Origin: Escherichia coli
Lineage (GTDB): Bacteria > Pseudomonadota > Gammaproteobacteria > Enterobacterales > Enterobacteriaceae
Assembly: GCF_029227855.1 (NCBI RefSeq)
Contig: NZ_CP074356.1
Strand: one strand, 5' to 3'
DNA length: 64,000 nt
Shown in pieces: positions 52,952 through 54,458 of the stretch. A program made the position numbers and the translations under genes. The first letter of the stretch is position 1. Each line of letters starts with the position of its first letter. The notes beneath the pieces are model-generated. The model saw only the letters and a program-made list of their open reading frames with translations, did not search any database and had not been told where the DNA came from.

Positions 52952-53061
52952 TATTCATTCTTCCAGATTCCTTCCGGCAGAGCCTTATACTGGAATATAC
53001 CTGGCTCAGGATATTGTTGAAAACATTATATGTTTGTCAAAAATAAAAGTTCTGTTAAGTA

Positions 53062-53415
53062 TTGATTGAGTGTTTGTTATACGGTCTAATGGTTTTTTCA
53101 GTATTAAATATTTATCATTCATATGGTGTGGGTAGAGTGAATATTGATGAGGCGTCGGGGTGTTTCATCCTTAGGCAGCGTATTGATATAGTCAATGCAG
53201 CACGAGCAAAGGCCTTCAGCCGTTTGACAGTTTTGTTCTGTACTCCTGATCGTCTTTCGGGAAGAGACGTTATTCTTCTGAATAGTGATGCTATACAGAG
53301 GGTTTGCGATGAGTTCATGGTTGCTAATTCAGAATTATTTGCTCTTGTTCAGGAGTACAACAGAATAGCCAGGACCTGTGGTATGGATGAACTTCGGATT
53401 ACTCATCTGGGGTAG
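53062..53415 (+). CDS. Hypothetical moron ORF between phage tRNAs and late promoter region
   Basis: Track ORF (TTG start; alternative internal ATG/GTG starts); AT-rich; no family recognised. Confidence 0.35.
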   Translation: MIECLLYGLMVFSVLNIYHSYGVGRVNIDEASGCFILRQRIDIVNAARAKAFSRLTVLFCTPDRLSGRDVILLNSDAIQRVCDEFMVANSELFALVQEYNRIARTCGMDELRITHLG

Positions 53416-53808
53416 ATACATATCTGGATTATCACCTGTTACGGTAAAAAGTGATTGCTTACTGTTTTTGTGAATGGCATTGCAGCAGCCGGATAATGTC
53501 AGTGCTGGCTGACGGTGTGCTGGTGGCGGGTGTGGTGGTTGTTGCTTTCCCGTTGCTGAAAAAGAAAACGCCAGACTGTTAGCCGGGTATCAGTTAGCGG
53601 GAGAAATTTTTAAATACTTCACAATTCAGGCGGTTGACTGTTGTCTGGTTTGCGGGGAGTTTGTTAAAAGAAACTGGCATGGTGAATCCCCCTGTGCGGA
53701 GGGGCAATCAGCGAGTAGGTATATGGGATAATCGCGGATTCAGGTGCTGGTACTGAATTCACCGGGAGGCACCCGGCACCATGCAATGGCACATAGCGCC
53801 ACTCTCCA

Positions 53809-53840
53809 GCCCCTCTCCGGAGGGGCTGTTTATATTGATT
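53809..53840 (+). terminator. Rho-independent terminator, candidate tR' of the Q-dependent late leader
   Basis: GCCCCTC-TCCG-GAGGGGC hairpin followed by a T-rich tract; TTGACT -35-like element about 170 nt upstream (53634). Confidence 0.5.
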
Positions 53841-53862
53841 TTGTCAGATGTGAGTAAACTCC

Positions 53863-54198
53863 TTATGGACTTTGTTGTTTTAGTCCATAAGGACATATTT
53901 GCAGAGTGCAACGGTTATTAAAGCATTCATTCAATACGTTATCTGTATTTGTAGGGCATTCCTGGCTGTTTTTGATTAAATTCCAGAATGTTTTATTGAA
54001 TGGTACTACGTTGTAAATGGTTACAGGTAGCACTTTGTTATTGAGCATGATACCTGTGTGAGTCAGTGTAAATATACTTTCAGGAGGTAAGAAAGCATCC
54101 GATTGATACCAGATTATTAATTTTACTTTACTCCATATGACTGAAAAAGATATTCCGCATGATGGCTGGATAACTGTATCAATCACAATCCACTTCAT
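53863..54198 (-). CDS. Hypothetical Cys-rich moron protein (111 aa), antisense to the late operon
   Basis: Track ORF with good RBS (AAGGAAG, 6 nt before the ATG); AT-rich; no family recognised. Confidence 0.5.
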
Positions 54199-54458
54199 TT
54201 AGCTTCCTTGTTTATGCCTTGCTGGTGATGTTCTGAAAAGTATAAATGATATTTTTGAATGTAAACCATAGCGCAGAATTATTTTTCTGATGTTGTTTAT
54301 TGTTTATTTAAATGCAGGGTGGTTTATATCTCGTCTTGTAGTTTATCCATGCATATCTGCTTGATAATCAGGTTTTTATTTAAGGTATGGTTTTGTGTTT
54401 TTTCTGTATTACATATCCGGTATTTTAAAGAATTATTTTTCAGATAGTGGAAAGAACC

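Follow-up and report, generated by a model that had tools for sequence, protein, structure and literature searches.

The 64,000-nt window examined here (the whole stretch of Escherichia coli contig NZ_CP074356.1 that was analysed) holds, between positions 52952 and 54446, a 1,495-nt AT-rich region lying between phage tRNA genes and phage lysis genes. Two plus-strand tRNA genes precede it: one with the anticodon CAT (52694-52769; found by ARAGORN and by Rfam at 69.4 bits, and annotated as tRNA-Ile, ileZ-like, in RefSeq twin genomes) and an argO-like tRNA-Arg (TCT) at 52875-52951 (ARAGORN, Rfam and the RefSeq-twin annotation). Downstream, a class II holin gene (54955-55170, plus strand; matches to phrog_9876 and phrog_20, and RefSeq annotation) opens the lysis cassette. 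Two troughs of low G+C content, 0.38-0.39 at 52850-53300 and 0.33-0.35 at 53900-54500, stand out against flanks of about 0.50. These borders and this composition bear out a sequence-only reading of the DNA, which had seen a moron region here, and the gene layout also supports an accessory slot in a lambdoid late operon. Read along the plus strand, the order would be Q, the late promoter PR' with its pause element, a leader terminator, the two tRNAs, a small gene that we call ORF92, a truncated tciB, the small-RNA gene STnc100, esterase remnants and the holin, with iraL as an apparent convergent insertion on the minus strand between STnc100 and the esterase remnants.

The segment 52652-55000 is 97.9% identical over 2.35 kb to the potB prophage of strain CFT073, and, among 5,426 complete genomes of E. 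coli, 862 carry 80% or more of the 1,495-nt region. The prophage studied here adjoins tRNA-Ser(cga) and mtfA, whereas its CFT073 counterpart adjoins potB; CFT073 also differs in its arrangement between Q and the slot, where it carries IS200C and a third tRNA. Taken as a whole, the stretch is very probably the accessory slot in the late operon of a Qin/phi-potB-type E. coli lambdoid prophage. Its content is mostly known: IraL and STnc100 have already been characterised, leaving one small conserved protein without an assigned function.

The Q antiterminator gene (51729-52550, plus strand) encodes 273 aa, matches phrog_127 ('anti-termination protein Q-like', E 6.5e-109) and is named 'antitermination protein' in the RefSeq twins. 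Beginning 6 nt past its stop codon, and upstream of the tRNAs, is a probable late promoter PR' with a sigma70 pause element (52556-52598, plus strand), recognised by reading the sequence against the lambda motif. It is composed of a -35 element TTGATT (52556-52561), a 16-nt spacer, a -10 element TAAATT (52578-52583) and, after 6 nt, AACGATGGG (52590-52598). The combined motif TAAATTN6AACGATGGG is found without mismatch at a single place in the 64 kb window, while shuffled sequences gave a mean of 0.12 matches even with 2 mismatches allowed; it is conserved in CFT073 and also in SfV, there with TAAGAT as the -10. The short leader is closed by a tR'-like intrinsic terminator (52631-52657, plus strand), whose 7-bp stem (52631-52650) precedes TTTTTATT; the annotation of SfV lists a putative rho-independent terminator at the homologous site. 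Position directly after Q, -10 spacing, pause element and downstream terminator are all those of a lambda-type PR'. The lambda promoter itself, TTGACT-17-TAAATT-N6-AACGATGGG, has the same layout and the same pause-inducing element, is likewise immediately after Q and has its terminator downstream. Lambda has TTGACT and a 17-nt spacer against TTGATT and 16 nt here, and a leader of 194 nt against about 60 nt; the Q encoded here (phrog_127, 273 aa) also differs from lambda Q in family and size class. By analogy with the published lambda PR'/Q mechanism, the 52556-52598 site is the probable true late promoter.

The sequence-only reading had placed a PR'-like promoter further downstream, at the TTGACT of 53634-53639, and had paired it with a strong terminator. 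The terminator is indeed there, as a G+C-rich hairpin at 53807-53828 followed by a T-run, and a terminator scan of the region returned 7 terminator-like sites against 2.6 expected from shuffles. The hexamer is present too, but it has no acceptable -10 at 16-18 nt and was not called by the promoter scan, in which the total of promoter-like sites in the region was no higher than in shuffles. The sequence from 53648 through the terminator is instead a known small-RNA gene, STnc100, so that the label 'late promoter and terminator' has to be corrected to that gene and the late promoter moved upstream of the tRNAs.

In its full form, the alternative would make TTGACT at 53634 a Q-dependent PR', the hairpin at 53807-53840 its tR', and 53640-53840 a late leader equivalent to the lambda 6S RNA. 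About 5 of 8 copies of the STnc100 element retain a -35-like TTGAC (TTGACT is not invariant among them), the strong terminator lies about 170 nt downstream, near the 194 nt of the lambda leader, and the upstream flank offers a loosely -10-like pair, TAAAT and then CACAATTC. The site is nevertheless 1.08 kb from Q, with two tRNAs and two ORFs intervening, and the pause motif occurs only at 52578-52598, where a far better PR' (TAAATT-N6-AACGATGGG, exactly as in lambda) is found 6 nt after Q. The same element moreover occurs twice in single late regions and also after stx2B, well downstream of the known PR' of Stx phages, and it belongs to a curated small-RNA family of conserved structure. On these grounds (distance from Q, missing -10, better promoter upstream, placement of the copies and membership of a curated RNA family) we rejected STnc100 as an alternative PR'-tR' unit, and regard the 53634 promoter as extremely unlikely.

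The STnc100-family gene (53648-53837, plus strand) reaches 132.4 bits with the Rfam model RF02076, whose gathering score is 47, and covers model positions 1-206 of 206, untruncated. It has the multi-branch structure of the family, closed by GCAUGGUG/CACCAUGC and followed by the terminator; the closing helix GCAUGGUG...CACCAUGC begins at 53677 and the intrinsic terminator stem occupies 53807-53828. Folding yields a minimum free energy of -69.5 kcal/mol (z = -2.87). A comparison of 7 copies shows no variation in the closing helix and in two hairpins, and compensatory double changes in 6 of 35 consensus pairs; the copies of Stx phages have a longer central variable arm than this one. Judged by this match, the prophage small RNA STnc100 is present in full length at 53648-53837.

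The family is curated, expressed and Hfq-associated (PMC5331693, PMC12711010), and the present copy is predicted from its sequence. In EDL933 eleven STnc100 copies are transcribed, one of them verified on a Northern blot (PMC5331693), and EcOnc27, a small RNA overlapping STnc100, binds Hfq (PMC12711010); discrete, Hfq-associated expression has been reported in this way for other copies, in EDL933 and Sakai. That STnc100 follows the stx slot in lambdoid late regions has likewise been described (PMC12370729; PMC12711010). The copy in the window would accordingly represent a structured, Hfq-associated prophage small RNA with poorly defined targets. Related or overlapping names for STnc100 are EcOnc27/sRNA103 and PasD; according to a 2026 paper by Zhu, Shabalina and Storz, variants of PasD and of STnc100 can be mistaken for one another.

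How STnc100 is transcribed is a separate matter. No convincing sigma70 promoter was found for it, only a conserved, extended -10-like TGTTAAAA and the partly conserved TTGAC. The RNA could be derived from a 3' UTR, that is, processed from an upstream cargo mRNA (tciAB, stx2AB or ORF92), with the element doubling as cassette terminator and as recombination joint between cargo modules. Besides the missing canonical promoter, conservation of a further 60 nt or so upstream, up to the tciB stop codon, is in keeping with such an origin, as are the invariable position of the element on the same strand and 3' of a cargo cassette and the frequency with which homology between prophages starts or stops at it. 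Conversely, RpoD ChIP-exo signal at the STnc100 copies of Salmonella LT2 has been reported as marking promoter regions (PMC10794520), and the conserved TGTTAAAA lies about 7 nt before the closing helix, where it might serve as an extended -10. We consider processing possible but on balance doubtful; it would refine the preferred explanation and leaves the identity of the RNA as STnc100 unaffected.

The copies elsewhere also show what kind of locus this is. STnc100 recurs between the cargo cassettes of other late regions and lies directly after stx2B (Stx2a_F451; X07865). In Stx2 phages such as Stx2a_F451, stx2AB sits exactly between the tRNAs and STnc100, and Stx2a_F451 has the same tRNA series upstream of stx2A. 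The claim that this is the slot of Shiga toxin is borne out by these comparisons, the segment from tRNA-Arg to STnc100 being the position of stx2AB. The shared order (Q, PR'/tR', the ileZ and arg tRNAs, cargo, STnc100, esterase, holin) extends over the Stx2 phages, Stx2a_F451 and 933W among them, but the cargo here consists of ORF92 and a tciB remnant in place of the toxin genes, the esterase gene has been deleted and iraL inserted, and Q is 273 aa long as against 144 aa in Stx2 phages. The interval between the tRNAs and STnc100 can be viewed as an exchangeable cargo slot of lambdoid prophages, filled phage by phage with stx2AB, tciAB or ORF92.

Two of the plus-strand genes around this slot appear degraded. 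Next to the plus-strand ORF, the slot holds a truncated TciB/DUF3927 gene (53451-53582, plus strand; 43 aa, GTG start), which is WP_000562553.1, a DUF3927 family protein, in RefSeq and matches phrog_1470 (E 7.8e-13) over profile positions 23-51 of 54 only. A full-length TciB/DUF3927 protein would be expected to be a small membrane protein, some 50-54 aa long, that has two hydrophobic segments. Compared with the TciB of JLK-2012, the ORF lacks 11 residues close to the N-terminus and diverges over the following 8, so that the first hydrophobic segment has been lost. In other phages tciB follows the TerB-like gene tciA, which is absent here, and our search for usable literature on TciB or DUF3927 found none. 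The ORF is probably a remnant, judging from the truncated alignment. Beyond iraL lie two remnants of a nanS-p/yjhS-type esterase gene (54459-54805, plus strand; phrog_143), with the N-terminal DUF1737 domain kept and the middle deleted: on the phrog_143 profile, 54447-54647 corresponds to positions 1-58 of 634 and 54644-54805 to positions 582-632. The first piece is a RefSeq pseudogene with its C-terminus missing, and JLK-2012, phi296 and Stx2a_F451 have an intact esterase gene at the same position.

The plus-strand ORF at 53062-53415 exists as described (117 codons, TTG start). Over residues 10-117 it matches phrog_2873 with E 1.8e-69; it also matches phrog_4827 at E 5e-5, and distant members connect these two groups, which together make up a small family from enterobacterial prophages. 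Homologs down to 21-39% identity align over their full length without frame breaks. Most are 91-95 aa long, and these start at, or a few residues from, the position of a GTG codon at 53137 with a Shine-Dalgarno-like GGTG in front of it. ORF92 (53137-53415, plus strand; phrog_2873) is the conserved part of the ORF, for which GTG 53137 (92 aa) is the most likely start, ATG 53089 (108 aa) and TTG 53062 (117 aa) being the alternatives. As the conserved form, the 108-aa and 117-aa versions were rejected, since stop codons interrupt the upstream frame in the paralog L009 and also in L010.

Against the L009 paralog, ORF92 has an NG86 dN/dS of 0.26 and differences of 23/22/43 at the three codon positions, an excess at the third; the two alternative frames contain 4-11 stops. 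It is, from this pattern of substitution, a real gene under purifying selection. Chance occurrence of an ORF in AT-rich non-coding DNA would agree with the non-ATG start, the weak Shine-Dalgarno motif, the lack of Pfam or NCBIfam matches and the want of annotation in the RefSeq twins and mEp460 (PGAP leaves ORF92 unannotated in the two RefSeq genomes inspected, as does the one phage record, mEp460). It is nonetheless highly unlikely in view of the strength of the phrog_2873 match, the intact frames of such diverged full-length homologs, the codon-position signal, a confident AlphaFold2 model (pLDDT 89), and the ATG starts and G-rich Shine-Dalgarno-like motifs found in 3 of the 4 distant members examined (L014, L015, L017). 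Since conservation and a coding signature are both present, ORF92 withstands the test on which the sequence-only reading had staked its proposal.

Homology and structure searches, which that reading had suggested as a check, placed the protein in a conserved family but returned no informative homolog or fold match. ORF92 has no match in Pfam, NCBIfam or PADLOC; a sequence-profile search of the PDB gave nothing below E 0.17; and an exhaustive profile search of 1.8 billion representatives recovered only 20 relatives, none of them named. The AlphaFold2 model has helices at residues 3-33 and 50-81, predicting a two-helix antiparallel hairpin, and fold searches with it met generic coiled-coil hairpins only. 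The relatives are located between Q and the holin, and the mEp460_ev081 phage genome carries the same ORF at 99.4% DNA identity.

Tentatively, the likeliest role of ORF92 would be that of a small protein-binding module in the cytoplasm, expressed together with the late genes. That ORF92 is a new host-modulating or lysogenic-conversion factor, whose hairpin perhaps binds and inhibits or redirects a host or phage regulator, we consider unlikely; relatives of ORF92 adjoin AraC-, GerE- and PapB-type regulators as well as TciA/TciB. The same neighbourhoods bear on the idea that ORF92, alone or with TciB, serves phage defence, superinfection exclusion or anti-defence. Moron slots are frequent prophage sites for such genes, and the TciA/TerB-like and TciB genes beside some distant relatives carry the database label of tellurite/colicin resistance. 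However, other relatives lie next to the AraC-, GerE- or PapB-type regulators and not next to defence genes, the predicted fold has no catalytic or sensor domain, and TciB is truncated and TciA absent at this locus. Five slot ORFs searched against PADLOC-DB 2.0 gave no defence-family match at E <= 1, so the suggestion of defence cargo finds no counterpart among models of known defence systems. A defensive role is quite unlikely. An AbiH gene is found in the same prophage of a 99.9% identical twin genome; the window has no ORF of AbiH size at the corresponding place. ORF92, conserved, under purifying selection and missing from the annotations inspected, remains the sole new lead of the region, and a modest one.

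The minus-strand ORF (53863-54198), which the sequence-only reading had listed as a second uncharacterised gene, has 111 codons, an ATG start and, as that reading noted, a good ribosome-binding site (AAGGAAG, 7 nt upstream of the start). It encodes the RssB anti-adaptor IraL, of the IraM/IraL/RssC family. With NCBIfam NF007393, for which the cutoff is 121, the protein reaches 161.4 bits (residues 1-110 on profile positions 1-113 of 114); it matches IraM of PDB 8twd with E 8.4e-32, and is identical to CFT073 IraL at 110 of 111 residues, the exception being a conservative V24I substitution relative to the tested protein. A Pfam search matched no family. Hryckowian et al. set the limit of the iraL subtype at 95% or more identity to the CFT073 gene, and by this criterion the gene is an iraL. 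K-12 IraM (b1160; PDB 8twd) is 62% identical over 107 residues without gaps, and has in common with IraL the four conserved Cys of the C-terminal 31 residues. On family profile, PDB profile match, CFT073 identity and published function, the ORF is IraL, and the label 'unknown Cys-rich ORF' is to be replaced by that name. The RefSeq name of the 53863-54198 gene, 'IraM', is imprecise. Only one of the two ORFs that had been taken as unknown is left in that class, and the proposal of undescribed cargo fails for most of the slot (IraL was described in 2014, and STnc100 is curated) but stands for the conserved, undescribed plus-strand ORF.

The neighbours DUF3927, the STnc100 region, a DUF1737 pseudogene and the holin are shared with CFT073 iraL, and so is the promoter. 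Its core (54231-54244, minus strand) comprises a -10 TATACT at 54244-54239 and a transcription start at 54231, leaving a 33-nt 5' UTR, consistent with the '-100 to +33' clone of PMC4045071. The published 5'-RACE sequence ACATCACCAGCAAGGCATAAACAAGGAAACCA matches the minus strand of the window at 30 of 32 positions, placing the promoter and the mapped mRNA 5' end as in CFT073. The gene would be transcribed from its own sigma70 promoter.

IraL function has been shown for CFT073 and Shigella sonnei (Hryckowian et al. [quoted passage not shown] From the 99% identity to the CFT073 protein, we infer that the IraL encoded here also binds RssB and stabilises RpoS. In a lysogen, it would be produced in exponential growth and would bind the RssB N-terminal domain, as shown for the CFT073 protein; with the adaptor so engaged, RpoS would be kept from ClpXP and stabilised. 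Because RpoS is raised in growing cells, IraL gives the slot a real lysogenic-conversion function, one that has already been published.

From the sequence and the lambda and Stx-phage precedent, we infer the PR' assignment, Q-dependent read-through and the expression of ORF92: after induction, Q-modified RNA polymerase starting at PR' would pass both terminators, that of the leader and that of STnc100. This read-through would express the tRNAs, ORF92 and the lysis genes, and would cross iraL in antisense.

Two further sequence elements border iraL. Upstream, 63-79 nt from the iraL transcription start and in the opposite orientation, a PhoP-box-like direct repeat (TGTTTA-TTGTT-TATTTA; 54294-54310, plus strand) is the only 11/12 match to (T/G)GTTTA-N5-(T/G)GTTTA on both strands of the window, in a region that is AT-rich. 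PhoP control of iraL, as for K-12 iraM, was set aside, the DNA upstream of K-12 iraM and that upstream of iraL here being non-homologous; the single 11/12 site is kept as a weak lead to a candidate iraL control site. At the other end, a perfect 11-bp inverted repeat, CCTTATGGACT / AGTCCATAAGG (53861-53892, minus strand), spans the last iraL codons and the stop codon, and may form a 3' hairpin of the iraL mRNA.

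The region between the phage tRNAs and the holin (52952-54446; 1,495 nt) is a known module, essentially the iraL locus of CFT073, bringing together an already published anti-adaptor, a small RNA of a curated family and cargo genes in decay. It lies on the E. coli chromosome within a Qin-like lambdoid prophage (gene content including DicF, sok/hokD, DUF968, RusA and Q), which runs from the tRNA-Ser(cga) gene at 39036-39125 onward and is preceded by four tRNA-Asn genes (8801, 11210, 13034 and 37969). At least 80% of the region is present, at up to 99.9% identity, in 862 of the 5,426 complete E. 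coli genomes, and window positions 52652-55000 are 97.9% identical to the CFT073 prophage, in the same gene order. The sequence-only reading had correctly located two ORFs, a hairpin and low G+C (two troughs of 0.33-0.39 against flanks of ~0.50), and had rightly recognized the slot occupied by Shiga toxin in other phages; its promoter at 53634, taken as the late promoter, and its view of the minus-strand ORF as undescribed did not hold. Rfam matches in the same prophage comprise DicF (43550-43601, minus) and sok (49234-49404, plus); upstream lie a cobalamin riboswitch (4408-4582, plus), EFASI (16543-16670, minus) and a C4 antisense RNA (18104-18192, minus). A genome nearly identical to this one (99.9% over the region studied here) has the yersiniabactin high-pathogenicity island (fyuA, irp1, irp2 and ybt genes) between its tRNA-Asn genes; judging by the tRNA-Asn positions, the matching stretch of the window (~13000-38000) is laid out slightly differently.

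The minus-strand ORF (53863-54198) matches the NCBIfam model NF007393 'anti-adapter protein IraM' (161 bits; cutoff 121) and the IraM chain of PDB 8twd (E 8e-32). Its product is 62% identical to K-12 IraM without gaps, retaining four C-terminal cysteines; K-12 iraM has unrelated upstream DNA. CFT073 IraL, encoded in the potB prophage island and 58.9% identical to IraM, about doubles the log-phase half-life of RpoS, and its gene has its own sigma70 promoter (Hryckowian et al. 2014, PMC4045071). The published iraL 5'-RACE sequence agrees with the window minus strand in 30 of its 32 nt, and the iraL transcription start therefore falls at 54231, behind a TATACT -10 element and with a 33-nt leader. 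Since the protein is identical to CFT073 IraL at 110 of 111 positions, the 5' end is matched and the surrounding CFT073 prophage is collinear, this ORF is an already characterised gene; its RefSeq label is IraM, not IraL. An 11-bp perfect inverted repeat (53861-53892) spans the last iraL codons and encodes the four C-terminal residues (QQSP) that IraL has in addition to IraM. The sole 11/12 PhoP box match in the whole window, TGTTTATTGTTTATTTA (54294-54310, plus), sits 63-79 nt ahead of where iraL transcription starts; PhoP dependence has been reported for K-12 iraM.

The supposed late promoter and terminator pair proved to be a small-RNA gene, STnc100 (RF02076; 53648-53837, plus), matched over the whole model at 132 bits (gathering score 47). 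RNA starting at 53677 is predicted to form a multi-branch fold closed by GCAUGGUG/CACCAUGC, followed by the terminator hairpin, which is indeed present (9 G+C-rich base pairs and a T-run, 53807-53828). The folding energy is -69.5 kcal/mol (z = -2.9), and compensatory changes affect 6 of 35 consensus pairs among seven copies compared. STnc100 is a multi-copy family in prophages: in EDL933, 11 copies are transcribed, with Northern blot confirmation for one (PMC5331693); EcOnc27, an Hfq-bound small RNA, overlaps the copy that follows stx2B (PMC12711010); and a relationship to PasD has been described (2026 preprint). A convincing sigma70 promoter for the window copy was sought and not found; TTGACT at 53634 lacks a -10 element at 16-18 nt and varies between copies, and a conserved TGTTAAAA directly before the closing helix might be an extended -10. 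The RNA may be either primary or processed. Opposite STnc100, a pseudogene ('hypothetical protein, incomplete'; 53664-53792, minus) is annotated in both RefSeq genomes inspected, and phage records show small hypothetical CDSs there; a structured RNA gene seems to have been given spurious coding annotations.

Judged by its motif, the late promoter probably lies not in the STnc100 element but at 52556-52598, six nt past the Q stop codon, where TTGATT-16-TAAATT-N6-AACGATGGG precedes a terminator (52631-52657). Lambda PR' reads TTGACT-17-TAAATT-N6-AACGATGGG; its AACGAT is, by the mechanism published for lambda, the sigma70 pause-inducing element. The 15-base motif has a single exact match in the window, against a shuffle mean of 0.12 matches with two mismatches allowed. 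It is kept in CFT073 and also in SfV, there with TAAGAT as the -10, and the SfV record annotates the homologous terminator.

Comparison with other phages confirmed the Shiga-toxin slot. In Stx2a_F451 the order is Q, ileZ-argN-argO, stx2A, stx2B, STnc100 (~45 nt past stx2B) and an esterase, so that stx2A and stx2B fall between tRNAs and STnc100. In phi296, which is without stx, STnc100 follows the tRNAs directly; in JLK-2012 the slot holds tciA (a TerB-like gene) and tciB (encoding a DUF3927 protein); and in the window it holds ORF92 and a truncated tciB, followed by STnc100. The nanS-p/yjhS-type sialate esterase gene, with its N-terminal DUF1737 domain, survives here only as remnants (first ~58 and last ~50 codons; 54459-54805, plus), and iraL is situated between STnc100 and the esterase ends. 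The internal deletion of the esterase adjoins the iraL insertion. Cargo cassettes are bracketed by STnc100 copies in several prophages, compatible with a cassette-boundary role. Three comparison loci have two copies per late region, each behind a different cassette (L003, 4165-4358 and 4634-4822; L005, 2344-2556 and 5650-5839; L009, 5352-5547 and 5612-5718), and inter-prophage homology often begins or ends at such copies, which may be recombination joints for cargo exchange.

With IraL and STnc100 already known, the plus-strand ORF (53062-53415) is the sole undescribed item at the locus. It is a real, conserved gene: it matches phrog_2873 (E 1.8e-69), a search of 1.8 billion cluster representatives yielded ~20 relatives, with identities down to 21-39%, and it differs from a 62%-identical paralog at 23/22/43 sites by codon position (dN/dS 0.26). 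It also occurs in the mEp460_ev081 phage genome, where, as in both RefSeq genomes inspected, it is without annotation. GTG 53137 is its likely start, giving 92 aa (ORF92; 53137-53415); most of the distant members are 91-95 aa long, with starts that coincide with this position or lie only a few residues from it, and stop codons close the paralog frame upstream of it. An AlphaFold2 model from a diverse alignment (pLDDT 89) predicts two helices of 31-32 residues each, joined by a conserved loop with a (T/P)PD(R/K) motif; this fold offers no functional lead. ORF92 had no match in Pfam, NCBIfam, PADLOC or PDB searches, and nothing ties it to defence or virulence, two of the cargo types proposed for this slot. 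Its relatives lie mostly between Q and the holin, some ahead of tciA-tciB and some after an AraC-type regulator; a GerE-type regulator adjoins one and a PapB-type regulator another. Our best guess, at low confidence, is that ORF92 acts as a small protein-binding module expressed alongside the late genes. Elsewhere among E. coli prophages, the gene for a 241-aa AraC-family (HTH_18) regulator precedes the ORF92 paralog (~60% identical) by 90 nt (L009, 3969-5062; L005, 2933-5360), and in L005 an IS3 element is inserted between the two genes.
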